Shown here one piece after another: positions 33,242-64,000 of a DNA stretch of 64,000 nt (position 1 is its first letter; every line of letters starts with the position of its first letter). This stretch comes from Macrostomum lignano (Eukaryota). The notes under the pieces are model-generated. The model had not been told where the DNA came from. It searched no databases and saw nothing but the letters and a program-made list of their open reading frames with translations. The position numbers and the translations under genes were made by a program. The stretch covers positions 124,001-188,000 of the forward strand of contig NIVC01002059.1 in NCBI GenBank assembly GCA_002269645.1, read 5' to 3'.

Positions 33242-33249
33242 AACAGCAC

Positions 33250-44400: not shown

Positions 44401-45396
44401 ACTGTCCCTCCCCAGTGTCTTTGATATCCCGCCACTGTCCTCCCTCCAGTGTCTTTGATGTGCCGCCACTGTTCCTCCCCAGTGTCTTTGATGTCCCGCC
44501 ACTGTCCTCCCTCCAGTGTCTTTGATGTGCCGCCACTGTCCCTCCCCAGTGTTTTGTATGTGCCGCCACTGTCCCTCCCCAGTGTCTTTGATGTTCCGCC
44601 ACTGTCCCTCCCCAGTGTCTTTGATGTGCCGCCACTGTTCCTCCCCAGTGTCTTTGATGTGCCGCCACTGTCCCTCCCCAGTGTTTTGTATGTGCCGCCA
44701 CTGTCCCTCCCCAGTGTCTTTGATGTTCCGCCACTGTCCCTCCCCAGTGTCTTTGATGTGCCGCCACTGTTCCTCCCCAGTGTCTTTCATGTGCCGCCAC
44801 TGTCCCTCCCCAGTGTCTTTGATGTGCCGCCACTGTCCCTCCCCAGTGTCTTTGATGTGCCGCCACGGTTCCTCCCCAGTGTCTTTGATGTGCCGCCACT
44901 GTCCCTCCTCAGTGTCTTTGATGTGCCGCCACTGTCCCTCCCCAGTGTCTTTGCTGTGCCGCCACGGTTCCTCCCCAGCGTCTTTGATGTGCCGCCACTG
45001 TCCCTCCCCAGTGTCTTTGCTGTGCCGCCACGGTTCCTCCCCAGCGTCTTTGATGTGCCGCCACTGTCCCTCCCCAATGTCTTTGATGTGCCGCCACTGT
45101 CTCCCACCCAGGTGAACCAGTGCGACGGGGACTACCGCGTGGATGCCCGCAAGAGCCTGTTGGAATGGTCGCTGCCGCTCATTGACCCGGAGGAGAATCC
45201 TACAGGCAATTTGGACTTGCTGGTTGGCGGCGGCGGTGCCAGCGAGGACAGCTTCTTCCCTGTCGGCGTGATGTTCACTTCGCAGCAGAGTTTAGTTGGC
45301 ATCGATGTTGACAAAGTGGTTCGGCTTGAAGGCGATTCGCCTGTAAAATTCTCAGTAGATCGCCGTCTGGTCGCCGATAACTTCAGGGTGGTTTGA
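41409..45396 (+). CDS. ARCN1: Coatomer subunit delta (COPI), 4 exons: 41409..42179, 43263..43593, 44019..44233, 45112..45396
   Basis: Canonical MVLLAAAVCNKSGKTLISRQFVEMTRSRIEGLLAAFPKL start, longin domain and C-terminal mu-homology domain. GT..AG introns with consistent phases (0, 1, 0). Confidence 0.96.
42795..43008 (+). repeat. 79-bp tandem repeat (~2.7 copies) in coatomer delta intron 1
   Basis: Unit starts at 42799, 42878 and 42957. Confidence 0.9.
44276..45105 (+). repeat. Minisatellite, 33-bp unit CAGTGTCTTTGATGTGCCGCCACTGTCCCTCCC, filling coatomer delta intron 3
   Basis: Tandem repeats running up to the splice acceptor at 45110-45111. Confidence 0.96.
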
Positions 45397-47555: not shown

Positions 47556-47720
47556 TAGGGTTTGAAATTCCGGGATTAGGGGCCAAATTCCGGGATTCGA
47601 ATCCCGGGATTAAAATTTGTCGGGATTGATAGTCCCGTTCCGGGATTACAAATTGCTGGGATTCGGAAGCCCGTGTTAAAGATCTATGAATTCTGGGATT
47701 TTTCGGGATTTAGGAGAACT
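47556..47720. mobile_element. One end of a hAT-like element (partner end not in window)
   Basis: Starts TAGGGTTTGAAA followed by clustered CGGGAT subterminal repeats. No matching TTTCAAACCCTA seen downstream. Confidence 0.45.
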
Positions 47721-48444
47721 TAAGTTCTTAAGAAAACGAAAGAAAAAAACTACATTTTCATAATTTATTTTTCACTTTCACTTTACCATACAAAATATTC
47801 CATCTTCCATGTGATTATTTTTTAGAATTTATTTTATGATTCATATTTTTTCCGAATACCGAATACTAGTTCCATCTCTTCTAAATGCCCTTGACTTTTT
47901 GTTCCTAATTCTGAGCTGCAGTACGATTATGAGCAAAAGTATTTGACTAACGTTGCCATTTAGCCCTTTAGCAAAATCCTATTGTTCTGTGTCCTCTCCT
48001 CTTTCTCTTCTTTAAGTTCTTTCTCCTCACCTCCCATAGTGTGGATCATGCTAAGTGCACGCGAGAAACGGCCCAAAGCTAATTCCCAAAAGCACGCCGA
48101 CGACAAGCGAATGCACGCCGATGCATGCCAATAAATTAAAATTCTAATTGAAGACAAAAAACGTATTTTAAATTGCATTGTGTAAAACAAAGCAACAAAC
48201 GATGTACAAAAGAAATGATATATCTTTAAAAACGTGTATTTTTCATACATTAATTTATTTAACAGTCTTATACACTGTTTATTTACAATAGTTTTTTTTC
48301 AAAAGTTAAATACAATAATACGTATTTTATGTCTGCTTACTTACCATTGCATTGGCAGCTTTGCCACATCAGGTGCCAGGCACGCAGCACGCGGCGCATG
48401 AGTAGAATGCATGAGGGGGCTTCTGGGACAAAATTTTTCACCTC

Positions 48445-48660
48445 CTCCATAATCCACCTAAATCCATCTATATTATCCCTGACAGAATCAGAAAAAAAGG
48501 GGGGTCGCACTCGCTCACAAAACGTCCTCCATAATCCCATTAAATCCATCCATATTATCCCTGACAGAATCATGAAAAAGGGGAGGGGCCGCACTTGCTC
48601 CGAAAACTTCGAACATAATCCTATTAAATCCATCCATTACTATCCCTGACAGAATCAGTG
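48445..48660 (+). repeat. Three ~82-85-bp imperfect direct repeats (core ATTATCCCTGACAGAATCA)
   Basis: TATCCCTGAC recurs at 48474, 48556 and 48641. Confidence 0.85.
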
Positions 48661-48852
48661 CATAACAGATGTCCACTAACACCTGTTATGCTCATTGACA
48701 CCGACATCCACCCATAGCATCTTCGAAACAATCAGAAAATAATCTGCATTCTTCTCCCCACATTCAATCCGCAACATGAAACCAGATCCCAAAGACTTTA
48801 AATCATCAGCGCAGGGTCCTTACCCTTTAAAAAAAATCTAAATTTTTAATAA

Positions 48853-48888
48853 AAATGTTTCCAGTTGTCTCTCCAGGTTCTTATTATA
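48853..48888 (+). repeat. Inner end of the left terminal inverted repeat
   Basis: 36 bp identical to the reverse complement of 63965-64000. Confidence 0.85.
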
Positions 48889-49094
48889 CTCAGCCTAATC
48901 CATTGTACAAATCCAAGTACCGATGCAAACTTGAATGCAGCGAGTACATGAGAAAATATTGGCCCGATGTTGATATCAATGTCCCTAATATTAATCTAGC
49001 TCTTCAAAGACACTGGTTTCATAAGTACGGAGTAACCTACGTAAAAGATTACGACAGCTACTATAACTTTGCAGAAATCATTAGGCAATTGTGA
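48855..49094 (+). CDS. Small viral ORF, unknown function (79 aa)
   Basis: AAAAATG start context shared with the other viral genes; ends tail-to-tail with the minor capsid gene. Confidence 0.6.
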   Translation: MFPVVSPGSYYTQPNPLYKSKYRCKLECSEYMRKYWPDVDINVPNINLALQRHWFHKYGVTYVKDYDSYYNFAEIIRQL

Positions 49095-49098
49095 TTTC

Positions 49099-49962
49099 TT
49101 ACATTCTCTCAATGATTAACGTCAATACAAACTCTTCACCGTTGAAATCAACACCCATCCCATCTTCAGTCTCAAACTGTAGCACAATCTCGTGAATCTC
49201 CTTATTACTCAATACAACTCTTTTCACTGGATTTGGTTTCTCTACCACCATCTGTCCTCCAGCAACAGAGTTGGAGATGTTGTACAAAATATTCGTTCGC
49301 TTTCCCTTAAATACCCAATCAAGACTGAGATTGCTTCTGATTAGAATATTCAAACCCTTTACAATGTCTGCAATATTGGGTGCTAAGAACAAACCGCTTA
49401 CATTTTCCCGGGCCATTTTAACGGTCCCCGATGCTTGAGTGGCGGTCCGCGCCGCGGATTCTGCCTTATTAACTTTCTTCTCGAATCCCAGTTCCCTATA
49501 CCAAGTGTCATCTTTAAACTCAACCTCCGCATCTTTGTGAACTTGCATGACCACTCTCATTACAGTGAGATCATAGGATAGTTTGACAGGGAACAGTTTC
49601 TTCTCTGGCTTACTCGCATCAGGTGTCTCAAAATGACCTCTCTTAGTAAAGACATTTTCTAGAAAGTTATTGTAGGTATCCACACTCTGCGTGCTCACAT
49701 GGAATACCACAGGGTCTGCTGCTGCACCTTTCCATTTGTAATAAAACTTATTATTTGCTGCCATCACATTGGGAACGTTTGACCAACCAGTGAAGTCGTT
49801 AAGATAGACATGGTAATTAGCACCTGGATCCAGGCTAATCGCCTGCTCTAATTTTTCAACAAACATCCCGTTTGAGTCATTAATTCGCCCAGTTATTGTA
49901 ATAGGAATGCTCTCCTTAGAGTGTGAAACAATGTTGTTTAGTCTTTCAGCAATCGCTTCCAT
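49099..49962 (-). CDS. Minor capsid protein (penton-like, single jelly roll)
   Basis: C-terminal IHEIVLQFETEDGMGVDFNGEEFVLTLII motif typical of Polinton minor capsid proteins. Adjacent to the major capsid gene. ATG at 49962 preferred over GTG at 49971. Confidence 0.8.
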   Translation of the reverse strand: MEAIAERLNNIVSHSKESIPITITGRINDSNGMFVEKLEQAISLDPGANYHVYLNDFTGWSNVPNVMAANNKFYYKWKGAAADPVVFHVSTQSVDTYNNFLENVFTKRGHFETPDASKPEKKLFPVKLSYDLTVMRVVMQVHKDAEVEFKDDTWYRELGFEKKVNKAESAARTATQASGTVKMARENVSGLFLAPNIADIVKGLNILIRSNLSLDWVFKGKRTNILYNISNSVAGGQMVVEKPNPVKRVVLSNKEIHEIVLQFETEDGMGVDFNGEEFVLTLIIERM

Positions 49963-49983
49963 TTTTTTCACATAAAAAAATAT

Positions 49984-51270
49984 TTAAACTTTACTGGATG
50001 AATTGTTGATCATGTTAAGCTTCACCTTCCTCTCAAATGCATAGATAATGTACAAGTCCACGGGTGTTGCGGCAGTCCTCTCAATGTTAGTCACGATATT
50101 CACAGGGCTGTTATCAGTAGGCATTTGTCTGGCAGACACATCAGCGCCAAACATCGGATATAGAGTTCCATATTGAAGAGCAGTGATAGCAATTCCATTG
50201 TTCTCTTTCACAGCCAAGTCGACCAACTCGCTGTAAAATTTGCTAATCTTGTTCTGACTGAAATCTCCATTTTGTGGCAGTGCAGGGTAAAGATTATCAC
50301 TGATTTCATGCTGAATGGACCGCACGTCTCCATGCATGTAGCGTATAATGCTATTTGGGTTTCTCATGTTAATAATAATATACCTTGGATTGCTGCATGA
50401 TCCCTCTTTAATGCAGATGTTTGTTCTAGTTTCGTTTCGCTCATCTCTACACATGTAGGCTGTGTATGCAACATCAATGTCCTTCTCTATTGCCTTGAGA
50501 TAATCCGCTTTTAGTGCAGTCTTTGGCTCAATGACTTCCAAATACAGCTCGATTCCGGTTAGCTTCACCTCCATCCTTGTGTGGTCCGCCCCAGTCCACA
50601 ACACTCTACTGCGATCATCTCTAGTCAGTCTAAATGTGTAGCTAAAGTTACTAGTCAGTCGATTAAATGTATTACAGAATCCACTCATGAATCTCAATGG
50701 TACAAATACATCAACAGACCGATACAGCGGGTTCTTAGCAGCATCATCTGCACCTTGCAATGCATAGTTGTATCTCTTCTTCCTATTTTTATAACCACTG
50801 TCATTGATATCTCCTTCTTTTTCGTCTGCAATAAAACCCGCACCACTTCCCAATTGAATAAAATCAGGATTCTCGATCAAACAATGAGCGTCATAGACAA
50901 TTCCAAAGTTGGCGATTCGCTCCAACTCAGTGCTCCCATTCGATACACTAAACTCCTTGAACATGTACGCCCAAAAGTTACTGATCAGAGCCACATCCGC
51001 ATCATGCTTGTCAACGTTAGCACGAGCCGCATCCGCACCACCCTTTGTCTTGAATTGAAATGTCATATGGAAGCCGCTCTTAAGACTGTGCACACTAACC
51101 AAAGACGAACATCCATTGTATGTAAATGTCAGTGTTTGACCAGGACCAAGATTAGTTTCATTCTGATTTTCCTGACTGGGAACTCTTACCTGAGTCGCTT
51201 TGATTGTGCTATCATCACTCAAAATAGGCTTGTTAATCTTGTAGAAAACTGGTGTCAGTGGGTCGTTCAT
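49984..51270 (-). CDS. Major capsid protein (double jelly roll, hexon-like)
   Basis: 428 aa, beta-rich. N-terminal DDSTIKATQ...NLG...TLTFT pattern, SVDVFVPLRFMSGF and C-terminal LYPMFGADVS match the Polinton MCP layout. Confidence 0.85.
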   Translation of the reverse strand: MNDPLTPVFYKINKPILSDDSTIKATQVRVPSQENQNETNLGPGQTLTFTYNGCSSLVSVHSLKSGFHMTFQFKTKGGADAARANVDKHDADVALISNFWAYMFKEFSVSNGSTELERIANFGIVYDAHCLIENPDFIQLGSGAGFIADEKEGDINDSGYKNRKKRYNYALQGADDAAKNPLYRSVDVFVPLRFMSGFCNTFNRLTSNFSYTFRLTRDDRSRVLWTGADHTRMEVKLTGIELYLEVIEPKTALKADYLKAIEKDIDVAYTAYMCRDERNETRTNICIKEGSCSNPRYIIINMRNPNSIIRYMHGDVRSIQHEISDNLYPALPQNGDFSQNKISKFYSELVDLAVKENNGIAITALQYGTLYPMFGADVSARQMPTDNSPVNIVTNIERTAATPVDLYIIYAFERKVKLNMINNSSSKV

Positions 51271-51300
51271 TTTTTAACTAAAAATAAAATAAAATAAGAA

Positions 51301-52503
51301 ATGAAGCGAAAAAGTACACAGCAGATATCTGAATTGGAGAAGCTAGCACAAGCAGAGAAACGAGTTACCGGGCTAATAAATAAGGAGCAACAATCCTACA
51401 ATGAGTTTGTCCAAGCAGCCACAGAGTTTCATAAACCCGGGTATGGAGAAGCTAAGAAAAATATTGATCAGGTCAAAGAAACTATCGACGACATACAGGA
51501 AACCCAGGTGCAAAAGGCTTTGGGCAAAATTCCAGAAGCACCACAGATACAGCCGCAACCACAACAACCACAACCACAACCACATCAATCACAACTAAAA
51601 GTGACAGATAACATTTTTGGACCAGTAGAGCGTGTCGAACATGATGGGAAATATGTATTTGGAATAAGTATGTGGAGAAAAAACATTTATAATGAACCAG
51701 TGGAATATTATATCGACCTAAATAAGAAACATATTTCTGTTGTTAAAGGCTCGGAAACTAAGAGCATTCCTTTCACAGAAACCTTACTGAATTTTATGAC
51801 CAAGAACCAAGAGAGAATCTCGGACAAACAGCTAAATAACTATAGAGATCTAGTGACTTTTGCTCTTGCTAGAGATATAGAAATATTAAAGGCCCCAGAA
51901 GTCCTGAGACTTATGTATGATAACGGTGTCAACCTGACTAGATTCAAAAAGTACAAGTACTTTAAACAATGGTTCGATTTGCCAGATCAGGCGGAAGTCA
52001 TAAAATATCTAGAACAACAACAACAACAGCAACAACAACCACAACCACAGCAGCAGCAACATTTCACAGAAGTACTCAGGCAACTGGAAAATGCAGATCC
52101 GACTCAAGTAGCTGAATATAAGAAACAAAACCCAACAGATTGGCAACACTTAGAACAACACTCTCCAGATCGAATGAACAGAATCAAGCAAAGAGTTTTC
52201 ACACCTCAACAAAGACAGGCACCACATGACAGTTCCATCTCTGAAAGTGAGCAGTCTTTTGCATCACCTCCCCAGCAGCCACAAGCCCAACCAACTCCAC
52301 AACCTCAAGACCAACCGCCCTCAACTGGAAAAGGAATTTCTGAAATCTACAAGCGAGTAGCGGTTCTTCTAGGAGCGGCAAAGACCGGAATGAAAGACGA
52401 GAATAGAAAAGAATTTGTCAACATCCTCAATAAAATGCTTGAGAGAAAATACATCGATAAGAGGGCGAGAGAGCTTCTGCTTTCACGGTTTAACAAAAAA
52501 TAA
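51301..52503 (+). CDS. Polinton-associated protein with Q-rich linkers and a C-terminal helical motif (KRVAVLLGAAKTG...EFVNILNKML)
   Basis: Intact 400-aa ORF. TDNIFG motif and C-terminal motif resemble a recurrent Polinton core gene (recalled, not searched). Confidence 0.65.
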   Translation: MKRKSTQQISELEKLAQAEKRVTGLINKEQQSYNEFVQAATEFHKPGYGEAKKNIDQVKETIDDIQETQVQKALGKIPEAPQIQPQPQQPQPQPHQSQLKVTDNIFGPVERVEHDGKYVFGISMWRKNIYNEPVEYYIDLNKKHISVVKGSETKSIPFTETLLNFMTKNQERISDKQLNNYRDLVTFALARDIEILKAPEVLRLMYDNGVNLTRFKKYKYFKQWFDLPDQAEVIKYLEQQQQQQQQPQPQQQQHFTEVLRQLENADPTQVAEYKKQNPTDWQHLEQHSPDRMNRIKQRVFTPQQRQAPHDSSISESEQSFASPPQQPQAQPTPQPQDQPPSTGKGISEIYKRVAVLLGAAKTGMKDENRKEFVNILNKMLERKYIDKRARELLLSRFNKK

Positions 52504-52519
52504 ATTTCTATTTAAAAAG

Positions 52520-52900
52520 ATGCCAATTATTTTCGAAAAAGACATTGACAAATACTATGACAAAGAGGAACTTAATCTCATTAAACGCGGATCTGGACTT
52601 TTCCCTGCAGGCCACTATCCAAGGAAAGAACGCTCAGGGAACGGTCTTGCCGATTTGATCGCTCAGGGGGCTAAGATTTTTAAGGTCATTGGAGAGAACA
52701 AAGAGAACATCAAGAACGTTGCCGAAGCGGCTGGCAGTGTAGCCACAGCAGCCAAAAAGATAAAGGATACGGTTAATGAAACCCGGAAATCAATACCAGA
52801 TATTCAACCCCTTGCACCGAGTGCAGATAGTGTCGATCCAGCCATCTACGCAAAGATGAGAGCTGAATATAAGAAAGGAGGCGGTTTTAAATTTGACTAA
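52520..52900 (+). CDS. Small basic virion core-like protein with putative protease cleavage sites
   Basis: ATG 52520 in AAAAAGATG context. Contains KRGSG, RSGNG and a terminal KKGGGF. Confidence 0.6.
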   Translation: MPIIFEKDIDKYYDKEELNLIKRGSGLFPAGHYPRKERSGNGLADLIAQGAKIFKVIGENKENIKNVAEAAGSVATAAKKIKDTVNETRKSIPDIQPLAPSADSVDPAIYAKMRAEYKKGGGFKFD

Positions 52901-53119
52901 TTTGGTGCACCCTGACGGTAAAAGAGGTGTGAGGGTGTAGGACTAGTCGGATGTAGGACTAGTCAAAAAAAGACACACACAACCCGAAAAAAAAGACACA
53001 CAACCCGAAAAAAAAAACACACACATCCCGCAAAGAGACACACACATACACATCCCGAAAAAAGACACACGCGTCTTAAATACACAAGTTTAAAAAGAAA
53101 AAGTTTTTTTACATAAAAA

Positions 53120-53920
53120 ATGGACTTCACAAACGACTTTCATCCCCACTGGACACGCAATCAGATAAAATTTGCTCACAACGAGATAATTCCAGGGCAC
53201 TTCCGATGCATTGTTGTTGGCTCATCTGGGTCAGGGAAAACCTTCAGAGTTTTTAACATGCTCCTCAGACCTGGATTCCTCGATTATGACACACTACATA
53301 TCTATTCACCCACTCTGTATCAAGATGAGTATAAAATGCTAGTAGCGGGCCTACAGAACAAACTCAACAAGGAAGATATTATTCAAAGTTTTAGACATCA
53401 AAAAGACCTCAACAGCAACCCGGAAGTTGTAGCCACTGAATACGCAAAGCACATCCCAGACAATGAAAAATGGCAAAACATTAAAGTTTTCACTTATGGA
53501 GATCCACAGATAGATCCTAAAACTAAACTCTTACCTCAACCTGATGAACTAGAAAAGGGGAGAAAGCACCTGATTGTCTTTGATGACTGCATGACCGGTC
53601 CCCAGAAACAGATAGAAAATTATTTCACCCGGGGTAGACATAATAATTGCAATGTTATTTACATTGCCCAAAACTGGTTTGAACTGCCAAATAAAACAAT
53701 TAGAGGTAACTGTAATTTGATTCTCCTTTTCCCAACCATACCACAGGATCGACTGAAACGATTTTATAATGAGGTCATTGCCCCAGCTCACATTACATAT
53801 CCAGCTAAGAACTCTAACAGAACAATATCACAGGAGGAATTTGTTAACATATGCTATGAAAAGTGGAACCAACCCTATCAGTTTGTCATGATTAATAAGG
53901 AGAAAAGAATTTTACTTTAA
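53120..53920 (+). CDS. A32/FtsK-like genome packaging ATPase
   Basis: Walker A GSSGSGKT, Walker B LIVFDD, RGRHNNCNVIYIAQ motif. Confidence 0.95.
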   Translation: MDFTNDFHPHWTRNQIKFAHNEIIPGHFRCIVVGSSGSGKTFRVFNMLLRPGFLDYDTLHIYSPTLYQDEYKMLVAGLQNKLNKEDIIQSFRHQKDLNSNPEVVATEYAKHIPDNEKWQNIKVFTYGDPQIDPKTKLLPQPDELEKGRKHLIVFDDCMTGPQKQIENYFTRGRHNNCNVIYIAQNWFELPNKTIRGNCNLILLFPTIPQDRLKRFYNEVIAPAHITYPAKNSNRTISQEEFVNICYEKWNQPYQFVMINKEKRILL

Positions 53921-53936
53921 TTTTTCATTTAAAAAA

Positions 53937-54815
53937 ATGTCAATAAATTTTGCAGGTGAGTCAACTACAGGCAACAGCACTCTCACAACTTCCTTCCTTG
54001 ACAAGCGCTACATTAACATTGATGAAGAGATCCCAGAGATCAAACTGAATAAAAACAGACTGAAAGCCCTGGAGCGCTCCATGCACCAGTTGCAAATCAA
54101 CATGGAAGATCTCAGGCTTAAAGTAGCTAGGCAGAAGTTTGAAAGTGATAAGCTTTATGCGCCGTTGTTAAACGCAACTAATGAACTAAGGTCAGAAATA
54201 ACTTCGATAGTCTCGCTAATCAACGGCTTGAGATCATCAGTTAATCTTCTGGGAAATTCCACTGATAGACGAATGCGTATTCTCGAAGGAGGAGTTTTCA
54301 CAAACACAGCTAAAGTGAATAATTTAGAAGAGTTCATGAACCAGTCAACAGCGTTGCATGATAGAATTAAAGAAAACGTCGCAACCAACACAGTTAAAGT
54401 CAATAATTTAGAAGAGTTCATGACTCAGTCAACATCGTTGCATGATAGAATTAAAGAAAACGTCGCAACCAACACAGTTAAAGTCAATAATTTAGAAGAG
54501 TTCATGACTCAGTCAACATCGTTGCATGATAGAATTAAAGAAAGACTTGATGCAATTAAAGTCTATTTAGATTTAATTTTTACCGAATGGCAGAAATCGT
54601 TGAGAAGAATCAGTCGTCTTGAGGGAGTACACAATCTTCCTGATATTGATACTGTTGAAGAGGCACCACAGACCACAAGGGAAATAAGTGATCCAACCGA
54701 CTTGACCACTGACCACAAATTTCGTGAGCCAACCAGTTTGACCACTAACCCAAAATTTCGTGAGCCAACCGGTTTGTTTGAGATCAAGTGTAGAATGGAG
54801 CGCATAGACAAATAA
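53937..54815 (+). CDS. Coiled-coil protein with 28-aa repeats, possible fibre/spike stalk
   Basis: Heptad pattern, with three 84-bp repeats starting at 54303, 54387 and 54471. Confidence 0.6.
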   Translation: MSINFAGESTTGNSTLTTSFLDKRYINIDEEIPEIKLNKNRLKALERSMHQLQINMEDLRLKVARQKFESDKLYAPLLNATNELRSEITSIVSLINGLRSSVNLLGNSTDRRMRILEGGVFTNTAKVNNLEEFMNQSTALHDRIKENVATNTVKVNNLEEFMTQSTSLHDRIKENVATNTVKVNNLEEFMTQSTSLHDRIKERLDAIKVYLDLIFTEWQKSLRRISRLEGVHNLPDIDTVEEAPQTTREISDPTDLTTDHKFREPTSLTTNPKFREPTGLFEIKCRMERIDK

Positions 54816-54928
54816 ATAGGTAGATTCGAAGAGACCTGCTGGCGCCAACTGCAGACGAAACAATCAAACGTAAAACAAATCTAACCACCACCAACGAGTT
54901 GTCAATTTTTTTAAAAAATTCTCTAAAA

Positions 54929-55648
54929 ATGGATGCTCAAAATTCTCTTTATGATCCGAATGCTCCCACAACACCTAGTGCACCTAGTGCACCCCAATAT
55001 GAGCAACAAAAACTCTACCCCGTCATTACTTGTAACTCTCAACAGTTTCGACTGGTGGAGATTCAAAAAATGCGAGATGATCTTGAAAAAAATATTTTCC
55101 ACAACACAAAGAAAATTAAGCGCTATGACAACCACTGTAAATTTTTCGACTACAGCAATATGATTCTAGGATCTGTGTCTGTTCTAACTGGATCTGCTGC
55201 GGCTGTCTCAGTGTTGCCAGCCATCACAGTCCCAATCGCAATTCCACTTGGTTCAGTAGGTGCTGCATGTGGACTTATTTCAGCAATTACTGGAGCAGTA
55301 GCGCGAAACAGGCGAAAAAAACTAAAGCAGCTACAGGAGAAGCAAGTAAAAGAGAAAGGAGTGCACACTTCAATCATAGGGTACATTTCAAGGGCAATCG
55401 AGGATAAGTTCATTTCAGAGGATGAGTTCAAAACCATTCAGGATCTTTATGAACAATCAATTCGAATGAACTTGAACATGGTCGGTACTGATGACATGAG
55501 TCAGCTGAAAAATGAACTCGAGAAAGTTTTTTCAACATTATGTGGAAAGAAAGTCGGCGAAAAATTCGGCAAGAAATTCGGCAAGAAGGACGACGAGGAA
55601 TGCACAATGAACCCTTATGAAACACAGCCAAGAATAATTTCCTTGTAG
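54929..55648 (+). CDS. Two-TM membrane protein of the type annotated as GasderminX-like in adintoviruses
   Basis: FRLVEIQKMRDDLE helix, glycine/alanine-rich hydrophobic hairpin, basic patch, then SRAIEDKFISEDEF. Confidence 0.6.
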   Translation: MDAQNSLYDPNAPTTPSAPSAPQYEQQKLYPVITCNSQQFRLVEIQKMRDDLEKNIFHNTKKIKRYDNHCKFFDYSNMILGSVSVLTGSAAAVSVLPAITVPIAIPLGSVGAACGLISAITGAVARNRRKKLKQLQEKQVKEKGVHTSIIGYISRAIEDKFISEDEFKTIQDLYEQSIRMNLNMVGTDDMSQLKNELEKVFSTLCGKKVGEKFGKKFGKKDDEECTMNPYETQPRIISL

Positions 55649-56017
55649 GTCTTTCGTGTTTTGGTCATTGCATACAAAACAGTCATGCACAGCTCACCGC
55701 AAATATCACTGCTAAGACCTTGGAGAATAAAGTCTGAGCGATAAATTTTTTGGATTATTTTTCCCCTTCATATAATTTCTTAGCTCTTCTGGTACTGCCG
55801 TCCCATAGCTATCGAAGTAATAACACTTGTGCTTGCGATCGGGATCAATCACCCAGCAAACCCAATGAGATCCTGGCTTATCGGTGGTGTCAAAGTTCAT
55901 GATGCCACATTCTTTTCTTAGAGGAAAATCAGGCAGAGTGTCCCTCATAAATATTCCTCTAAAGTTTGGGATTTCCAGTTCGTTAGCCAAATCTTCAAGA
56001 AAGTTATTTGTCATCAT
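55615..56017 (-). CDS. Adenain/Ulp1-like maturation cysteine protease, frameshifted at 55746-55751
   Basis: GSHWVC and YFDSYG lie in the first frame. IYRSDFILQGLSSDICGELC lies in the +1 frame, ending TAA at 55617-55615. Removing one base gives a 133-aa protein. Confidence 0.88.
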
Positions 56018-56089
56018 TTTTATGAGTTTTATTAAACTTTCTCTTAAACCTAAACCCAACCTCAACCTCCTAAACCCAACCTCAACCTC

Positions 56090-59000
56090 CTAAACCCAAT
56101 CTCCTAAACCTAATCTCCAGTGCCCGAACGGTAGACTGTTAATATTGTCATCAAAAATGAATCTCTTGTTATCTGCACCTGACAGTCCAATCTTCTTTTG
56201 CTGAATTGTGTGAATAATATGGTTTTTAGATTGTAGCTTTGAGAACTCATGTGATGTCTTTTTGTTACAATTCAAGGCGTCTCTGTATTCAGCTTCATTA
56301 AGTTCCTTCCTAACCACACGTTTCGGAATTCCCTTTGATTTTTTAATTGGGCCTGACGACTCACATTTTACAAAATAGGACTTTGCTCTCAACCCAATGA
56401 ATTCAGTGATTATGTCACCAGCAATCTCGTCCTTCATTTTCCCAATCACTTTCTTGTTAGTAGCGTCAAACACTTGATCGCCATTCTGTGTCCTGAAAGA
56501 TTCATCATACTCAGACAAGTCAAACAACTCTTTTTGCTGCAGCATGTCCTGATAAATGTCTTCTGTTTGAATATCCATAATAAAACTGTCTGTGTCAGTG
56601 TACAAGAGTTTCATTTTATCCTTGTACTGCTGCTTCATGCCATAGAAGAACTGGTACATCAGACGTTTTGATTCGTCGAGAACAGTGACACCTGTATAGA
56701 TCGGCTTGCGCAGCGTCACCTTGGTTTTGTAAAATATGATCACACCTAAGTAGCTATTAAAGATATGGAGTTCTTTGAATGTTGGCTTTGACATATTTGC
56801 CTGAATAACAGCAGGCTCTGATGAGGTAACAAGTTTCAGGTTTGTTCTTTTCCGCTCATTCTCAAGAGTCTTGCCATAGACAGAGTTGTTGGCTAACTTA
56901 AAGAGGTTCTTGTCAAAGTCGTTGGTTGCTTTGGTCCTAAACTGGGTGTTCTTATCAATGTAGGGTTTCATCCACGCTTCCTCTGTAAATGTAAGAGCCC
57001 TGTGAACTTTGGTGACCCTGCAACCAAGTGAGATAAAATACTGAAGCAGTTTGTAATGGATTTTGTAACGTGTCTTGTTGTTTAGATTCTGTGTTAGTTT
57101 CTCTGTATGTTCTTTTTCTGTTCCTGACAGGTGCCAAGTTCCATTATTATCATTGGGAGTTTCGATTATTTTCGGGCACTTGATGTTCTCTGGGAAGGGT
57201 GGAAAGTCAGAGAAATAGTCGTGAAGCTCTGGTGGAATGTAAACATCAACTCATAAATGGCAGCCAATGAAAAGTCCTGTTTGAATTCTGATGAGGGTAG
57301 CCATCGAAAATCTCTAACTGGAAGATCTTGACTCATCGCCCACCCGTAGAGATTATTAGCGTCCAAGTAAGTAATGTAGTTTGAGGGCTGCTCCTTATTG
57401 TAAGATTCAATGTAGGGATTGTTTGCTTTTGCATATGTGCAAATTGAGATCCCCCTCGCTTTGACGATTCGACAAAATTGTACATGTCAATGTCTGTAAG
57501 AAGTTCAATGTACCAATCTGGATCTTGATCCCATTTCATTTTAAGCAAAGATTCCCAGCTAGTGGCAGGCAGAGACACATAATGTGCTGGATCGAGGCCA
57601 TATGCTGTGTACCAGGTGTATCTGAAGGTTTCAAACACATCAGCCAGCAGAAACACATCTGTGTAGAGGTAAAGCAGGTGATACTGGAAGAAGTTTTGAC
57701 AATTAAAGTAATTATAGACATGCTTCGCGTGCTCATAGTCTTTGTCAGAGATTCCAGAGTCTGTTAGCTTTGAAAAGAACTTCTCCTGTGGTGGTAAACC
57801 TTCTTCAAATACGTGATACCCAGTAATATTTTCATAGGGGTAGAAGCCTTTGGTTCTCAGGAGTTTAAATGATTCATCACTGTTGTTAATTTTACTTGCA
57901 AACATCTTTGTATATGTACATTGTTCATCTTTTAGATTCTTGCTTAGTTCGTCTAGACTGGCAGCTAGAAATTGATATGAATCCTTCAGTCTTATTTTAC
58001 CTTTACCCGAATTATCCTGTTTAATATCAACACACTTAAACTTCTCCTTGTTCTCTGCGATGCAGTCAAGGTGTATGTCTGGAATCATGCCGATTTTTTC
58101 AACTATTAAATGCATGTCATAGTTCTTTGCGTTGTGACAAAATATCGTTAGATCATGAATGTTCGATTTTAGCTTTAGATTACAGGTGTTATGCGCTGCA
58201 CCTCTAAATTTCCCAGTAAAGTGGCAGTGGTCCCTAACGGTGGGGTTTTTAATATTAGTGCAAGTTAACTGTTTCCTGCAGATGTGGCAATGAGTTGCTG
58301 ATAGGAAATTACTTTCATCCTCCTCAGTCATCATTATTGGAACAGGTTGAAGGGTGCTAATCACTTTTGCAACTCTAACATTCTGGCAATAAACTGCTCC
58401 ACACACTGCTCTCCAAAGAAATAATTATACTCAACAAGTCCTTTTGTATTAATAAAGGCATATGCTACTGAATTGGGGACATGTTTTCGAGTTGGAGTTT
58501 GTTTTTGTGTTTGAGTTTGTTTTTGAGTTTCTGGCATGATTGAGCATTCGAAATCAGCATATACAACAAATGGGAGCTTCTCCATCTTGTGATAGTTCTT
58601 AAACCGGAGATACTTCTCTTCAGCTGAAGGAAGAGAGCAGTTTGTTGGGTGATCCTCGCATGATAATTCATGCTCTGCTAGTTTTTCAAAGCGTTCAGGT
58701 CCACTGTAATGCTTAAGGCACAAGCGGCAGATGGCAACAGCCTCGTGATGATTATTCAACTGCTTGTGAATGAGTCTTGAAAGATCTTTAATCCAAACAT
58801 AGTGAGCCTCCTCTAGTAAATTACCAATCACTAGAAGATCCACTTCAGTCCGCCTTTTCCCCTCAGGATCTAAAACGTCTTTGCTACATCTGACCGGTTG
58901 AACTTCTCAGTTTTTTCACTCCACTCAAAGACTGTGATTCTAATTTTGTTATTAAACACTTCTTCTAGCTTTGGGATCTGAGAGATCGCCAAGCCTCCTT

Positions 59001-59931
59001 TTTCAAACCTGATTCCCTTTTTTCGCATTCGATGAGATAGTAGTTGAAATAATTTTGATAATTTGAGGTTCTTTCGGGGTGGTGAGGGACACTATCATGA
59101 AGAAGTGCAGAAAGAACTGCCCATAGAGCACAGCAATTGTCTTTATTTTTAACATTTATGCAAGCTTTTTTGCCGGCTAGCTTATGCGGGAGCTCTATAT
59201 AAGAGGAGGCTTTAAGTGGGTCATATTTCATGACCATGACAGTCGCTCTTTGAATCCCTCCCACGACCCATCCGGAACCTCTGGATGTAAACGCTTCAAT
59301 TTTCTTAGTGACATCTTGAAGGAAAGGATCCAGTGTGTCAGTAGGGGTGAATGGCTTCGATTTTGTTGTCATGTAATACTCGAGATGCTCAGTGGGTTTT
59401 GCAGGCATATAAAACGCAATCTTGAATGATATCTGTAGTTTAAAGGTCTTGCGTGTTTTGAGTGTGTGATCAACAACTGATTGGATGCTGTCTTTATAGT
59501 CGTAGATGTTTGCGGTGGTATCCTTAATTGGGATTGTGTACTCTATGTAATGTTCTGTAAACTTCCTCTGTGCAAAATTAATCTCTTCAATGGCAAGCTC
59601 CGACTCTTTTAAATGGATTAATTGCTCTAATTTCTCTTGTTCCTGCTTATTTTGTGGGTACTTTGCTTTTTCACCAGTGAGAGTTTCGTATTTGTTAACT
59701 AAGTTGCGACTCCTCTCTTGGTGTTCCTTTGCAGATTTTTTATAGGCGCATACTGGTTGGATTCTAATTGATTGATGATTTCCAACTGTTTTTCATAGCT
59801 TCCCAGGTGACCAGGGTCGTGTTAAACGTTTGTTTACATGCTTCTCTTAGTAAATTACTTTTGTCTTGAAATGAGACGCCTTTTGAAAAATATTTGTTGA
59901 CTAAATCTCTTGCTGGATTGGCTTTTGGCAT
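56090..59931 (-). CDS. polB: Protein-primed family B DNA polymerase with inserted EndoVII-like domain, split by at least 6 single-base frameshifts (~1280 aa reconstructed)
   Basis: Motifs in order: SGW, SYIELP, HYVWIK, YADFE (ExoI), RDHCHFTGKFRGAAHNTCN, HNAKNYD (ExoII), YTDVFLL (ExoIII), DANNLYG, NSVYGK, YTDTDS. Confidence 0.93.
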
Positions 59932-60055
59932 TTTTTTCTCTAAAATAAAAAAAAATTTTGAGGGTGACCACCCTGATAGAAAAGTTGAACTGTTTCTACA
60001 TCCTATCAGTAGTATTAGGTTTATGAAGCTGGATAAAGTGGGGTTTTAAACCTCA

Positions 60056-60512
60056 TCACATGCGCATTATTGTAAACCCAGCATTGTGCAGTGTCATGAT
60101 GGCTTTGACAATGTCAGACTTGCTTACAGAATTTTCATGCTCAAAATCATCACGATCGGGCAGCCCTCAGGGCAACCATCTCCTGCCTTAATTGTTATAC
60201 CTTTATCTCTTGCAATCTTTTGCAATTCTAGCTGGTGGGCTCTATCATTCCCAGCTTTAACAGCAGTTGCTACACCTCCAGCTACACCACCTGCGGCACT
60301 TACAGCGCCTGCAATGATCGGAATAAGAGCTGCTAATGGTAGGATTCCTCCTGACTTTTCATCTGTGATACTGTGTCTTTGCTCATTACACTCAACTATT
60401 TGCTGTGTGGGATCAACCTTACTTTGATACCTTTAATTGAAATAAGACCTGGTTTCTTTGATTCAATGATTTTATTGAGTTTATTGATGGTTCTGGTTTC
60501 AATCTTTGTCAT
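60056..60512 (-). CDS. Adenovirus pX/mu-precursor-like (cupiennin-like) virion protein, two frameshifts, absent from the ORF track
   Basis: KSGGILPLAALIPIIAGAVSAAGGVAGGVATAVKAGNDRAHQLELQK. Adding one base near 60420 and one near 60159 gives a 152-aa ORF from AAAAAATG to TGA. Confidence 0.75.
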
Positions 60513-60528
60513 TTTTTATTTTAATATT

Positions 60529-61566
60529 TTAATTAATTTCCGTGTCAGCTGGTATCACTAAGAGTTCAGCTCTAGTGAATGACCGTGTGGGGGATTTAGT
60601 GTTAAAGGCCTGAGATAAAAAGTAATAGTCACCGGAGTCGGAGGTAAAATGTCTGTCTATTTTATGTACATCAAGGCTGAAGAATGGATCTGTAGCTCTT
60701 CTTTTAGTGTCCTTCTCTAGCTCTCCAGGTAGATATAAAAAGCGTAGAAACTCAGAGTTTGTCAGTATGTATGGTGATTCAACTCCTGGAAGCTTAGGGT
60801 AGTTCGAGGTGTGTTTTGTGTTGTGTGTGTTGTGTGGGGTTGTCGTGTTGTTGTCTGTTTTATGAGATGACTTAAGTTCGACAGTGTCTTGTTTAATTGC
60901 ATGGGACGGTTTCAATCCAGTCATACGTGTGACTTCATTGTTCAGTTGCTCTATAACAGTGGGGAGCCGGTCTGTCCATTTTGAATAGTACTGACCACTT
61001 TTTAGTTTCAGCTCCTCAGCTGTCTGCTTAGTGAATAGCCTCTTGGCTAGAGTTAGATTGAATCTCTCAACGTACGCTTGGTCTCTGTGCAAGTTTGTTC
61101 TGCCATAGCGAATCTCTGTATTGTGCTTTTCCATAAGGGATTTCACTGCACCCATGAATTCCTTACCCGGGTCGGTCATGAACATTTCAGGGTAACTAAG
61201 GGGTGAGTTTTTATAAATATCTTGCAGTGCGCTGGCAACAACCTCTGACTTCTTCGTCTTGAGTGGGCGAGCTTCCTTATATCTGGAAGCAACGTCTGTA
61301 ATTGTGAGAGCATACTTGTAGCCCGAGTCATTGGGGAGAAACAAAAGATCTGCTTGGTGCGCCTCATTAGGTTTATAAATACTGAAATGGGGCCTTTCAA
61401 ATTTTACTGGTGGGAAATAGACTTGAAAGACAGCCTGCTTAGAGAGCCACTTTTCTACTTTAGCTTTTGGTTCCTTACTTAGTTCTGCGAGTTTGGTGAC
61501 TGCATTTTTTCCTACAAAGAATCCTTTGTCGCTGTAGTAGAGTTTTTTAAGTTTCTGATCTGTCAT
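60529..61566 (-). CDS. Retroviral-type (rve) DDE integrase
   Basis: QADL, TDPGKEF and VERFNLTL catalytic motifs; intact 345-aa ORF. Confidence 0.95.
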   Translation of the reverse strand: MTDQKLKKLYYSDKGFFVGKNAVTKLAELSKEPKAKVEKWLSKQAVFQVYFPPVKFERPHFSIYKPNEAHQADLLFLPNDSGYKYALTITDVASRYKEARPLKTKKSEVVASALQDIYKNSPLSYPEMFMTDPGKEFMGAVKSLMEKHNTEIRYGRTNLHRDQAYVERFNLTLAKRLFTKQTAEELKLKSGQYYSKWTDRLPTVIEQLNNEVTRMTGLKPSHAIKQDTVELKSSHKTDNNTTTPHNTHNTKHTSNYPKLPGVESPYILTNSEFLRFLYLPGELEKDTKRRATDPFFSLDVHKIDRHFTSDSGDYYFLSQAFNTKSPTRSFTRAELLVIPADTEIN

Positions 61567-61596
61567 TTATTTAAAAAGAAAATTTTAAATAAAATA

Positions 61597-62046
61597 ATGC
61601 AACACTATGGTGGTAAGTTAGATTCACATGGACTGATAGAAAAGCTTCCTCATCCAAACAAAGGCTGGACACTTCCCGGCTATAAATATTGCGGGCCTTT
61701 GAATCCACTTGAAATACAGTTAGATACAAACGATAATCCAAATCCTGGGCATGAGCCTGTGAACGAGCTAGACTCTGTCTGCATGTGGCACGACGTTAAA
61801 TATAGAGATTTTCCTGAGGAGAAGAATCGCTGGGACAAAGAAATGCTTAGGAGACTCGACAATATGGGGATTTCAAGCGGATTTCGTGAGTCGATTGCTC
61901 GGAAATTAGTCAAGGCGGTTATTTTTTGTAAGAAAAAGCTGGGGTTGGGGATCGACGGCGAGGGTGGGGTGGGCTTTGCATTGCATGCGCCAAGTAAAGA
62001 ACTAGGAATACTGCTGAAAGAGCTGGGGGTTGAGAGAGCAGAATGA
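61597..62046 (+). CDS. Parvovirus VP1u-type phospholipase A2 (PLA2X-like)
   Basis: LPGYKYCGPLN calcium-binding loop, LDSVCMWHDVKY catalytic HD, and downstream D in RWDKEM. Confidence 0.9.
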   Translation: MQHYGGKLDSHGLIEKLPHPNKGWTLPGYKYCGPLNPLEIQLDTNDNPNPGHEPVNELDSVCMWHDVKYRDFPEEKNRWDKEMLRRLDNMGISSGFRESIARKLVKAVIFCKKKLGLGIDGEGGVGFALHAPSKELGILLKELGVERAE

Positions 62047-62104
62047 TTCAAGCAAGAAAATTCAAGAGAAACTTTTTAAGAAAATAACAGCAAAAGAAAA
62101 ATAA

Positions 62105-62228
62105 ATGGATGACATGATATACTTTTGAGCAGCAGTTAGTTTCCCAAATTTGGTACTCACACAGGCTGCCACTCGAAGGCCGCTGCTACAGCCCGCGCAT
62201 CTTTAAAAGAAGAAAAAAAGTAACTTGA
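62105..62228 (+). CDS. Possible ~40-aa viral ORF with one frameshift
   Basis: AAATAAATG start; MDDMI then, after a shift, TFEQQLVSQIWYSHRLPLEGRCYSPRIFKRRKKVT*. Confidence 0.2.
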
Positions 62229-62456
62229 TATTAGCAATCTCCTTACTTTCTTTTTCCTTTTAAAGATGGAAAAAAATTAACTTGTCTGAAACAAGAAAGA
62301 GAAGATTTAGAGAAGAAGAGAAGAGAAGAGAGGAGAAGAAGAAGAAGAAGAAGAAGAAGAAGAAGATTTAGAGAAGATGAGAATTATCTTCTTATTATTA
62401 AGAAGATAAAGAAAAGAAAAGTTATATTTATGTACTATTTTTACTATTTTTATTTA

Positions 62457-63224
62457 CTATTCTTTTTTTATTTGAATAACACCCATGCTCCAATAGGTTT
62501 TATATTTATTTGAACACATTAACATGTCTTCAATATCATTTTTTAAGGTGTAAAGTTCCTCAAATGTTATATTTAGCTTAAAAAAACGAGGATAATCATG
62601 TAATGTTTTACTAAGAGACAACATTTTTCTAATAGTGCTTTTAGCATATGTTATCCCATGTCGTTGCAAAAACTCCAAAACCTGATCATCACAACTTTTA
62701 CATTTAACAGTTTCTTCAGGATGTTCTATTCTATGTTTCGCTGCGTTGTGGTTAAGCCATACACCACAGATGTATGTGGCAATGAGCATACGATTATTAC
62801 ATCTTTTTAAACTTGTGACTGCCGTCTGTAGTTGTTCTTCTACAGATAACGGCTTATTCGTATCAACAATAGAATAGGGGTGATTAAATTCATCGACCCC
62901 TTCAAATTCAAATACTTTTTCGCAAAGATATTGATGAAGCGTCTCACCAGTTGTCCGTAGTTTTTGCTTCTTTACTTTTACTTTCTTTCTTGCTGGTTGA
63001 TCTTGATCCTCATCTACATCCATGCGCTCTTCATTTAATTTTTTTGATCGATCTTCTAAATTGCCACAACTAGGTACTAAGGGGCAATCTAATGTAACTT
63101 TTAAATGAATTAAATCATCTTCAGATAAGAGTAGTTCGTGTTTATTGTTATCTTTTGCTAACTCATTTAGCTGTAAAATTTTAGAGAAGAGAGATAGATC
63201 TGGTGTGACAGACAAGTCAGACAT
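62457..63224 (-). CDS. Viral ORF of unknown function (255 aa), basic NLS-like patch, helical C-terminal domain
   Basis: Intact ORF with AAAAATG start; RKKVKVKKQK; CKSC motif. Confidence 0.7.
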   Translation of the reverse strand: MSDLSVTPDLSLFSKILQLNELAKDNNKHELLLSEDDLIHLKVTLDCPLVPSCGNLEDRSKKLNEERMDVDEDQDQPARKKVKVKKQKLRTTGETLHQYLCEKVFEFEGVDEFNHPYSIVDTNKPLSVEEQLQTAVTSLKRCNNRMLIATYICGVWLNHNAAKHRIEHPEETVKCKSCDDQVLEFLQRHGITYAKSTIRKMLSLSKTLHDYPRFFKLNITFEELYTLKNDIEDMLMCSNKYKTYWSMGVIQIKKE

Positions 63225-63644
63225 TTTTAACCGAGTAACTCTTCAAAAGTAGTTGTATAAATAAGCTTTCTTCCTTACCCGACAGACTTTGAGGGGGGGG
63301 GGGTGTCCGCCTGATAGCGGCGAGACGACTTGGCTTTGGGGATAAGGGGAGAGAATTGAGTAGACTGAGAAGAGCTGTGGGACGAGGGACAATGGAGGAT
63401 CGGGGGGTATGGTTTTGGTTGGCCATACGTATGCCATACGTAGCATACACGTGCTGCGGGATTGACTGTAGGTAGAGAAGTGGAAAGAGAGAGAACTTGC
63501 TATGTAGAAATAAATGCTCGCGGTGAGGAGACGCTTTTGCATAGGAAGAGAGGTTCTCTCTGTATACGGGGCCTGCGTACTCTGAGTTAGTGAGGGCATG
63601 AAGCTTTTGCATGGGGGAAGAGATATTTGCTCTGTACATGTTCG

Positions 63645-63805
63645 GCGGCGGAACATTTGTTGGGCTGAGGAACAAATGTTCGGCTGAGGAACATTTGTTC
63701 GGCTGAGGAACATTTGTTCGGCGACAGAACATTTGTTCGGCTGAGCAACATTTGTTCGGCTGAGGAACATTTGTTAGGCGACAGAACATTTGTTCGGCTG
63801 AGGAA
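63645..63805 (+). repeat. 19-bp tandem repeat ACATTTGTTCGGCTGAGGA near the right end of the virus
   Basis: About 8 imperfect copies. Confidence 0.9.
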
Positions 63806-63964
63806 TATTTGTAGCTGGCTCTGTAGCTGGTGCCCTAGAGGGTAGTTTTACATTTTCCCTTAGATAAATAGTTGCAAGCGTTGATTTTAGATGTAAGAGC
63901 ATTGTGTATGAATAGATCTTAGTAGACATTAACAAGCCTGGCAGAACTGTTCAGTGTGAGTTCC

Positions 63965-64000
63965 TATAATAAGAACCTGGAGAGACAACTGGAAACATTT
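63965..64000 (-). repeat. Inner end of the right terminal inverted repeat (continues beyond the window)
   Basis: Exact reverse complement of 48853-48888. Confidence 0.85.

Follow-up and report, generated by a model that had tools for sequence, protein, structure and literature searches.

An endogenous Polinton/Maverick with an unnamed capsid clade and three genes broken as assembled

The right-hand part of the 64,000-nt window analysed here (coordinates are positions in this window, which ends at 64000) raises the question of whether an endogenous virus lying there could still be active or is the recent relic of one. The region from about 48401 to 64000 is an endogenous Polinton/Maverick (polintovirus) of ~16 kb, a well-known kind of endogenous DNA virus. 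The protein-primed PolB (pPolB), rve integrase, double-jelly-roll major capsid protein (MCP), A32 ATPase and adenain-like protease on which a preliminary description had based this identification are all present. Intronless ORFs are packed tightly across 48855-63224, where 14 gene slots were counted, in agreement with the earlier estimate of about 15.

Setting and ends of the element

The sequence is continuous, without N, from host-type DNA into the element. The flanks hold Pumilio and delta-COP-like genes with introns, as well as a FoxA-type forkhead. The forkhead matches one unnamed gene model (P0130) at 99%, and its named matches are animal, mixed and mostly over the forkhead domain; these host genes indicate an animal host, a feature expected of adintoviruses/Eupolintoviridae. 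GC3 in the element is 0.25-0.46 vs 0.71-0.84 for host ORFs, and the element is therefore foreign and has not been ameliorated. No Rfam family was found in the window.

The probable left terminal inverted repeat (TIR; 48401..48888, + strand) has a matched inner edge at 48888 and a guessed outer edge at 48401, and holds 82-bp subterminal tandem repeats at 48443-48658. The inner 36 nt of the right TIR (63965..64000, - strand) are cut by the window end. The two arms are identical at 36 of 36 positions between 48853-48888 and 63965-64000 (chance E 1e-12), so that the perfect inverted repeat described earlier as joining both ends holds for the 36 nt in view; of the ~50-1500 bp expected of a Polinton TIR, these match and then the window ends. 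As the right arm runs off the window, both termini and the target-site duplication (TSD; 5-8 bp, usually 6 bp, in Polintons) are out of sight. On the left, AGTAGA at 48401 is the sole AGTAG word between 45960 and 48860 and is one base off AGTAGT, a likeness that could be due to chance; vertebrate Maverick end motifs are AGTAGT/AGAGAG (PMC8097293). The left end more likely lies near 48401 than at the originally proposed 48337, judging from these sequence features. The latter position belongs to a 98-aa ORF (48337-48633) that overlies the 82-bp tandem repeat, has no Pfam match and is probably not a gene. Near the right end lies a 19-bp tandem repeat of 9.2 copies (63639..63812, no strand assigned), and the long ORFs at 63217-63789 that overlie it are probably spurious.

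Virion, packaging and integration genes

The MCP gene (49984..51270, - strand; 428 aa, PF21738) is uninterrupted. The protein matches the Pfam double-jelly-roll-like family at E 2e-5, below the curated cutoff, and its relatives carry PF21738. Its structural model, with a pLDDT of only 54, matches the capsids of PBCV-1 (Vp54), Sputnik and mavirus (Foldseek E 4.5e-10 to 4.5e-9), and among the fold matches listed all are double-jelly-roll capsids. The closest relatives are encoded on unnamed contigs (P0001-P0006 and P0009, 71-78% identity), followed by P0007, P0008 and P0250 at 42-44% and then by proteins at 27% or less. Together with these unnamed contig capsids the MCP forms a supported clade (SH-aLRT 100 for 6 rows, 99 for 9 rows), and the P0001-P0009 capsids sit on short unannotated contigs of 0.9-3.7 kb. 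Informative names were found for none of 9 capsid matches and none of 10 more distant representatives, and an MCP alignment scan of a prokaryotic genome collection confirmed 0 of 38 pattern matches. Of 244 clade-invariant columns the MCP departs at 15, compared with 5-18 in its relatives, and is thus no more deviant than they are.

Adjoining the MCP, as expected for PX, the single-jelly-roll minor capsid protein of Polintons (PMC4028283), is an uninterrupted 287-aa ORF (49099..49962, - strand) that is probably the penton or minor capsid protein. In the Atlas its look-alikes, at 0.98, are viral proteins without names, and the recognition value falls just short of the 2300 mark. Searches of Pfam, NCBIfam, PHROG and PDB sequences gave no match, a single-sequence model (pLDDT 35.7) gave no fold match, and DUF5901 did not occur in the literature searched. 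The minor capsid protein named in the preliminary description was therefore not recovered by sequence or fold; location and viral look-alikes are what point to it.

The A32/FtsK-type genome-packaging ATPase (53120..53920, + strand; 266 aa) shows Walker A and Walker B motifs and matches Pox_A32 (PF04665) at E 7e-7, above cutoff, and a PHROG terminase at E 2e-7. The rve (retroviral-like) integrase (60529..61566, - strand; 345 aa) shows its DDE residues and matches PF00665 at E 2e-9, above cutoff. Both frames are uninterrupted, which together with the MCP bears out the earlier statement that capsid, ATPase and integrase ORFs are intact. Neither the whole integrase nor its last 123 aa gave a Chromo match at E<=10, a search limited by HMMER filters that drop most matches above about 0.1, and the next gene starts 21 nt past the integrase stop. 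A scan of the prokaryotic genome collection with the integrase confirmed 0 of 44 pattern matches. A parvovirus-type phospholipase A2 (PLA2; 61597..62046, + strand; 149 aa) is recognised by Phospholip_A2_4 at E 2e-13, with no PDB sequence match at E<=0.01.

The remaining genes are less easily named. A possible small gene of 79 aa (48855..49094, + strand) starts inside the TIR and is preceded by the T-run/A-rich ATG context common to other element genes. A Q/P-rich protein of 400 aa (51301..52503, + strand), possibly PZ-like, has no above-cutoff family. A 126-aa protein (52520..52900, + strand), possibly core or membrane-active, has as a lead a Colicin Pfam match at E 0.019, below cutoff. The 292-aa coiled-coil protein (53937..54815, + strand) contains internal repeats of 84 nt and 36 nt and has only SMC-type coiled-coil matches, below cutoff; it may serve as a fibre or tape measure. 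A 239-aa protein (54929..55648, + strand), which may be PW/GasderminX/SLATT-like, has a hydrophobic hairpin (hydropathy peak 1.89), with SLATT_1 at E 0.014 and two weak membrane-type Pfam matches, all below cutoff. This ORF and the 126-aa ORF are the membrane-type candidates, and no above-cutoff gasdermin or cupiennin match was found. Finally, a 255-aa accessory protein without family match (62457..63224, - strand) has a GC3 of 0.25, below the 0.36-0.46 of the core genes, and Atlas look-alikes at 0.93-0.95 in unnamed eukaryotic clusters, most commonly Mucoromycota, which with their low recognition value are weak leads.

Breaks in the replication and maturation genes

The pPolB gene (56090..59931, - strand) is spread over six collinear frame pieces separated by five frame changes, located within about 58992-59031, 58861-58909, 58367-58370, 57447-57453 and 57250-57280; a further break may lie near 59780. 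Its content is complete, the pieces tiling profile positions 56-1238 of 1240 with scores of 81-420 bits for five and 5.6 bits for one. DNA_pol_B_2 is matched at E 5e-10 on one piece, PF03175 and PF02945 are matched as well, and 1688 of 3078 candidates were retrieved at E<=1e-20. The best relatives are 44-48% identical, with none above 48% among the 120 matches listed. The N-terminal pieces align to relatives, with no Pfam match to the N-terminal OTU-like domain expected of an adintovirus PolB; Cys and His motifs visible there by eye are presumably those of the OTU-like pattern.

In the adenain-like maturation protease (55615..56017, - strand) the break falls between about 55725 and 55767. The first frame contains His51 and Asp69 and ends without any catalytic Cys after the Asp; a Gln-x6-Cys motif, presumably with the Gln-to-Cys spacing of adenain, lies in an overlapping frame. 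The matches to Peptidase_C5 (E 0.004, below cutoff) and to adenain 1AVP (E 0.043) are weak and concordant. The adenovirus pX/mu-like core protein gene (60050..60508, - strand; Adeno_PX E 2e-7, above cutoff) is also broken: its domain frame (60124-60432) has no Met before residue 95 and no in-frame start, and a second break near 60160 was seen by eye only.

Of the full virion, replication and integration modules of the preliminary description, those for replication and for virion maturation are thus not full as assembled. As assembled, the copy would be unable to replicate or mature on its own. Under the definition of an intact Maverick (Barreat and Katzourakis 2021), which asks for uninterrupted core ORFs together with TIRs and a TSD, it does not count as intact, its pPolB and protease being broken. 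The suggestion that it may still make particles does not hold for this copy as assembled, with pPolB, maturation protease and pX-like core gene all broken; it would hold only with a helper copy, or if sequencing errors account for the breaks.

Age of the copy and origin of the breaks

No in-frame stop occurs in 11,406 coding nt, a count that left out the junction edges and limits substitution divergence to 0.54% at the 95% level. This makes the copy young, as had been proposed from the TIRs, the 36 identical bases of which bound divergence only at <8%. The breaks reflect either errors of assembly or decay that set in recently. Out of 13.1 kb of coding sequence, a single block of 3.2-4.5 kb holds the 6-7 supported breaks (P 0.004-0.008 if breaks are placed uniformly; P 0.001 and 0.014 in an earlier test with 9 or 5 rough positions). 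Runs of at least five identical bases occur in 4 of 6 junction intervals vs 1.18 expected (P 0.014), where the intervals were profile-defined and both intervals and run threshold were chosen after seeing the data; an earlier check at rough junction midpoints found such runs at only 2 of 9 positions, and 45 homopolymer runs within intact genes are unaffected. Real slippage mutations also favour homopolymer runs. Lesions that are all frameshifts have a P of 0.009-0.27 under neutral decay, across assumed ratios and for 6-7 breaks, and such a pattern is therefore not rare if indels are frequent.

On balance we lean slightly towards a recently integrated ~16-kb Polinton/Maverick in an invertebrate chromosome, in which most breaks come from a stretch of the assembly that was poorly corrected. 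The underlying copy, or the family that it represents, would therefore probably be coding-complete or nearly so. A stronger form of this reading seems to us rather unlikely: the breaks would be assembly errors, and the element a coding-complete polintovirus, still mobile today, from a clade without a name. The unusual gene mix of such a member would be a divergent (Beta-type) PolB with an EndoVII-like insert, PLA2 and pX as separate genes, and an integrase lacking the chromodomain. Its host would be a laboratory-reared invertebrate, possibly a flatworm of Macrostomum type.

Somewhat short of an even chance, and still a substantial one, is that the breaks are real and the copy young, already dead and non-autonomous, to be mobilised or packaged only via a helper copy. 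At least six breaks in three genes speak for it, as does the fragmented pPolB, a common state in Mavericks (PMC8097293), where 96% of vertebrate loci are degraded. Bordering the last PolB junction is a stop, present in 4 of the 6 tblastn alignments shown, that may be a true nonsense codon. Recombination or gene conversion with an older copy possibly supplied the damaged block, and this mosaic origin would account for the clustering of the breaks. An old donor block should hold internal stops, however, and none occurs inside the six PolB pieces. The pieces deviate at 31 of 205 near-invariant columns vs a median of 1 for the column-defining relatives, a decay test confounded by lineage distance, and the non-gap differences lean conservative, with 12 of 25 positive in BLOSUM vs 32% for random missense.

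Two further explanations are far less probable. Early domestication, in which selection in the host would preserve capsid, ATPase, integrase and PLA2 and leave the replication genes to decay, is highly improbable: the supported breaks do all lie in the protease, pPolB and pX-like genes, with none in the 8.4 kb of the other ten, but the broken genes are contiguous, so that position explains the pattern equally well as function. Moreover, since the protease and pX serve virion maturation, a retained capsid would have to do without this step, and GC3 shows no shift towards the host. More improbable still is that the contig was wrongly joined to a free viral genome or to a copy belonging to a different locus or organism. 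The TSD out of sight and the right end outside the window would allow this, and Starrett et al. reported adintoviruses from contaminating organisms; against it, N-free sequence runs from host-type DNA into a plausible TIR that has subterminal repeats, and the integrase of the element is intact.

Relation to known polintoviruses

With Polintons/Mavericks (Polintoviricetes) the element shares pPolB, rve integrase, A32 ATPase, adenain-like protease, double-jelly-roll MCP, intronless genes, probable TIRs and a size within 13-25 kb (PMC4028283; bioRxiv 2023.08.22.554363). It differs in that its MCP belongs to a small unnamed clade and three genes are broken as assembled. Unlike in the vertebrate two-module plan (PMC8097293), pPolB, protease, pX-like gene and integrase lie side by side on the same strand.

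The adintoviruses (Starrett 2021, PMC8502044) have been renamed Eupolintoviridae (PMC12451622). Those with Beta-type PolB share with the element an animal host, an adenovirus-like protease and a pX-like gene, and the weak match of its PolB to PF03175 (39 bits for one piece and no match for the C-terminal one) is likewise shared with the Beta class. The adintovirus integrase, however, requires a C-terminal chromodomain (PMC11071296), which the element lacks, and on this one definition strict adintovirus membership fails; of the original label Polinton/adintovirus, Polinton/Maverick remains. The element further differs in its PLA2, a gene held to be characteristic of the virion modules of Alpha types and absent from the Beta virion module (GasderminX and Cupiennin, no PLA2X), and in having pX as a separate gene. 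No named adintovirus hexon was among the capsid matches; an adintovirus hexon is expected to be recognised reciprocally in BLASTp with the Mayetiola or Terrapene references. Mixed Alpha/Beta pairings have already been published.

The PolBs of cnidarian polintoviruses (Oculina patagonica, Hydractinia symbiolongicarpus; P0019, P0085, P0099, P0118) are 39-44% identical to that of the element, and these two cnidarians are the only source-named organisms among the 120 PolB matches listed, most of which share the EndoVII-like insert. From this cluster of cnidarian PolBs, to which coral polintoviruses (PMC11131425) are also compared, the element PolB diverges at conserved columns. The undescribed lineage proposed earlier can be upheld in a narrow sense, with none of 8 element proteins matched exactly in the collection (nor either of 2 host proteins) and no informative capsid names, but an unnamed state is usual for Polintons. 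No description of such an element was found among the papers listed on Macrostomum Maverick/Polinton or flatworm Polintons, nor a match in three supplements of PMC5730564 or in the portion covered of the PMC8502044 supplement, of which Table S1 and the protein files may bear on novelty.

Significance and proposed life cycle

Capsid-bearing Polintons are common in animal genomes, by the thousand in corals (PMC11131425) and with 134 intact Mavericks in 17 vertebrate species (PMC8097293), and one additional element leaves this picture unchanged. Its contribution is a capsid clade without a name, together with a set of accessory genes that blurs the division into Alpha and Beta. The element would gain in importance if reads proved the copy intact and the host were an animal easily studied in the laboratory. 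As of 2021, particles of Mavericks were unobserved (PMC8097293), and a narrow literature search found no later animal virion work. If the element were coding-complete and mobile, the infectious-particle question for animal Polintons could be examined directly in a natural host.

The gene identities of this element, combined with literature on the family, suggest the following cycle. The rve integrase would join TIR-bounded linear DNA into the host genome, and the protein-primed PolB would copy the extrachromosomal form, starting at its ends. The A32 ATPase would fill a capsid of double-jelly-roll proteins, with pentons at its vertices, by pumping in the DNA. The adenain-like protease would mature core proteins, namely the pX-like protein and probably neighbouring small proteins too. 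PLA2 and the hydrophobic-hairpin protein could assist the particle in crossing membranes. In a motif scan, PLA2 itself carries a protease-type cleavage motif near residue 119.

Gene content and classification

The insertion at the right end of the window is a young Polinton belonging to an unnamed capsid clade; as assembled, it carries broken genes for replication and maturation. Fourteen gene slots were counted between 48855 and 63224. A Pfam scan of 24 pieces gave matches above cutoff for the ATPase (Pox_A32), the integrase (rve), PLA2, the pX-like piece (Adeno_PX) and one piece of the protein-primed DNA polymerase (pPolB; DNA_pol_B_2 and Endonuclease_7), and below cutoff for the major capsid protein (MCP; DJR-like) and the protease (Peptidase_C5), which also matched adenain weakly (E 0.043). 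A predicted MCP model (pLDDT 54) resembles the capsids of PBCV-1, Sputnik, iridovirus and mavirus. Adjoining MCP is a 287-aa ORF at the position where a penton is expected according to a description in PMC4028283; its look-alikes in the Atlas are viral proteins without names, and sequence and fold searches gave no confirmation of penton identity. The 400-, 126-, 292-, 239-, 255- and 79-aa ORFs received no reliable assignment. PZ (400 aa) and PW (239 aa) are no more than tentative labels.

Polintons are defined by pPolB plus an rve integrase, commonly accompanied by this virion module (PMC4028283; PMC8502044; bioRxiv 2023.08.22.554363; PMC10748475); the pPolB layout outlined in PMC11161782 is TP-vOTU-exonuclease-palm. 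Since the element resembles Polintons and carries their testable core features, we classify it as a Polinton/Maverick. Adintoviruses are now named Eupolintoviridae (PMC12451622), and the feature list in PMC11071296 includes an integrase C-terminal chromodomain. Because a domain search found no chromodomain on the element integrase, we withhold the strict adintovirus label and retain only the Polinton half of the identity proposed in the preliminary description. A weak PF03175 match, likewise seen in Beta-type PolB, suggests a polymerase of that type, whereas PLA2 is described as a trait of the Alpha module. Such Alpha/Beta mixtures have already been reported (PMC8502044; PMC11071296), as have endonuclease inserts in pPolB, for another PolB class (bioRxiv 2023.08.22.554363).

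By eye, nearly all element genes (48855-63224) start in the same context: a T-run, then A-rich sequence, then the ATG. Among ATGs, a simple version of this rule fits 22 of the element's 574 vs 20 of 1720 in host DNA, and the context may act as a common signal for transcription (a promoter) or for translation. The 255-aa accessory gene (62457-63224, minus strand) has a GC3 of 0.25, below that of the core genes. Its Atlas look-alikes are weak and come most commonly from Mucoromycota, and it may be a later acquisition. The stretch separating it from the convergent PLA2 gene, at 62198-62450, contains an inverted repeat of 26 nt as well as a purine-rich tract, (AGA)n.

Relatives of the capsid and polymerase

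Nine MCP relatives emerged from 4158 candidates, some 71-78% and the others 43-44% identical; every one lies on an unannotated contig no longer than 3.7 kb. A midpoint-rooted tree without named references was built from those of the 158 stored relatives that are 380-520 aa long (95 proteins). In it the window MCP joins five rows (SH-aLRT 100) nested in nine (99); other BLAST hits, among the matches listed, were at most 27% identical. A profile search recovered 498 representatives at E<=0.001, and none of the ten looked up had an informative name. The closest PolB relatives, among the matches listed, are 44-48% identical; most of the listed PolB matches carry PF02945, and those with an organism name are all cnidarian. 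The lineage therefore appears unnamed within the proteins covered by our searches. Polintons as a type are known and abundant (reported in PMC8097293 and PMC11131425), and this one adds a capsid clade that appears unnamed.

Broken replication and maturation genes

The preliminary description of a near-complete element with full virion, replication and integration modules is partly confirmed, and its interpretation partly supported; it omitted that the frames of pPolB (56090-59931), protease (55615-56017) and the pX-like gene (60050-60508), all on the minus strand, are broken. In tblastn, PolB relatives fall on five segments, with the frame changing between them. A profile of 76 relatives of at least 1150 aa (from 120 among the matches listed) aligns six of 77 scanned stop-free pieces, five at 81-420 bits and one at 5.6 bits, across positions 56-1238 of 1240. 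As these pieces tile the profile, pPolB is complete in content yet has five frame changes, and we infer a sixth at the N-terminus. The protease has His51 and Asp69 in one frame with no Cys further on, its Gln-x6-Cys motif sitting in an overlapping frame, and the pX-domain frame has no Met ahead of residue 95 of 102. Read as assembled, this copy is predicted to be incapable of self-sufficient replication or particle maturation.

Assembly error is somewhat the likelier source of the breaks. Across 11,406 coding nt without an internal stop, substitution divergence is at most 0.54% (95% bound; junction edges excluded), and the six to seven supported breaks cluster in a block of 3.2-4.5 kb out of 13.1 kb (P 0.004-0.008). 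Runs of at least five identical bases occur in four of six junction intervals against 1.18 expected (P 0.014). Of 244 clade-invariant columns, MCP deviates at 15, a number inside the 5-18 spread of its relatives. All four observations favour error or at least youth. Against error, real indels also favour homopolymer runs, and a rougher test found runs at only two of nine positions.

Alternatively, the breaks could reflect real recent decay, a reading we consider plausible though short of an even chance. In four of six alignments displayed, the last PolB junction has a stop at its edge that may be a true nonsense codon, and neutral decay would leave a frameshift-only pattern with a probability of 0.009-0.27, the value varying with the indel rate assumed. 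Of 205 near-invariant columns PolB deviates at 31, the median being 1 for the relatives that define them, a comparison confounded by lineage distance; of the 25 differences that are not gaps, 12 are conservative, vs 32% for random missense. The boldest reading, an intact, mobile polintovirus in a tractable invertebrate, is unlikely.

Ends of the element

The inverted repeat previously called perfect is identical at 36 of 36 positions (48853-48888 and 63965-64000), but only these 36 nt are visible, since the window halts there, and they bound divergence only at 8%. The word AGTAG occurs once, at ~48401, in the 2.9 kb preceding the repeat's inner part, and the left terminal inverted repeat (TIR) probably extends across 82-bp repeats to this point. 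With this end, the TIR would measure ~490 bp and the whole element ~16 kb, within the size range stated in PMC8097293. The inner TIR end holds a start codon (48855, plus strand; 63998, minus strand), so that the first 11 codons are common to both arms; beyond them the left arm continues as the 79-aa ORF, while the reading frame of the right arm ends at 15 codons.

Host setting

Animal host DNA fills the window up to about 48 kb and contains numerous minisatellite arrays, a FoxA-type forkhead gene and intron-containing Pumilio (PUF) and delta-COP-like genes; GC3 is 0.71-0.84 in host ORFs vs 0.25-0.46 in those of the element. Simple and tandem repeats are put at 15% in M. lignano in PMC5730564, a figure compatible with a Macrostomum-type flatworm host but no proof of one. 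The introns of the Pumilio (6965-17982) and delta-COP-like (41364-45396) genes, both on the plus strand, are packed with kilobase-long minisatellites of 23-47 nt periods, which account for long spurious ORFs there. Three of the window's ORFs are matched at 98-100% by an unnamed gene model, P0130, and the host locus is thus already present in a public protein set. Spanning 25813-33676 on the minus strand, P0130 merges ORFs 33358-33245, 31299-30718 and 26712-25828, joining a Cys/His-rich membrane protein to the FoxA-type forkhead, and is probably an annotation fusion. The membrane protein, which gave no Pfam match, resembles a RING-CH ligase. A single-exon, GC-rich ORF of 557 aa (606-2279, minus strand) is a predicted host gene without a match in Pfam and NCBIfam searches. 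At 47557-47710, six CGGGAT/ATCCCG words are clustered, accompanied by a short inverted repeat, and resemble one terminus of a cut-and-paste DNA transposon; as no partner end lies within the window, the Polinton may sit inside another element. Imperfect nested inverted repeats at 18337-20043, with arms of 37-43 nt separated by 1.3-1.6 kb, point to a non-autonomous DNA transposon.
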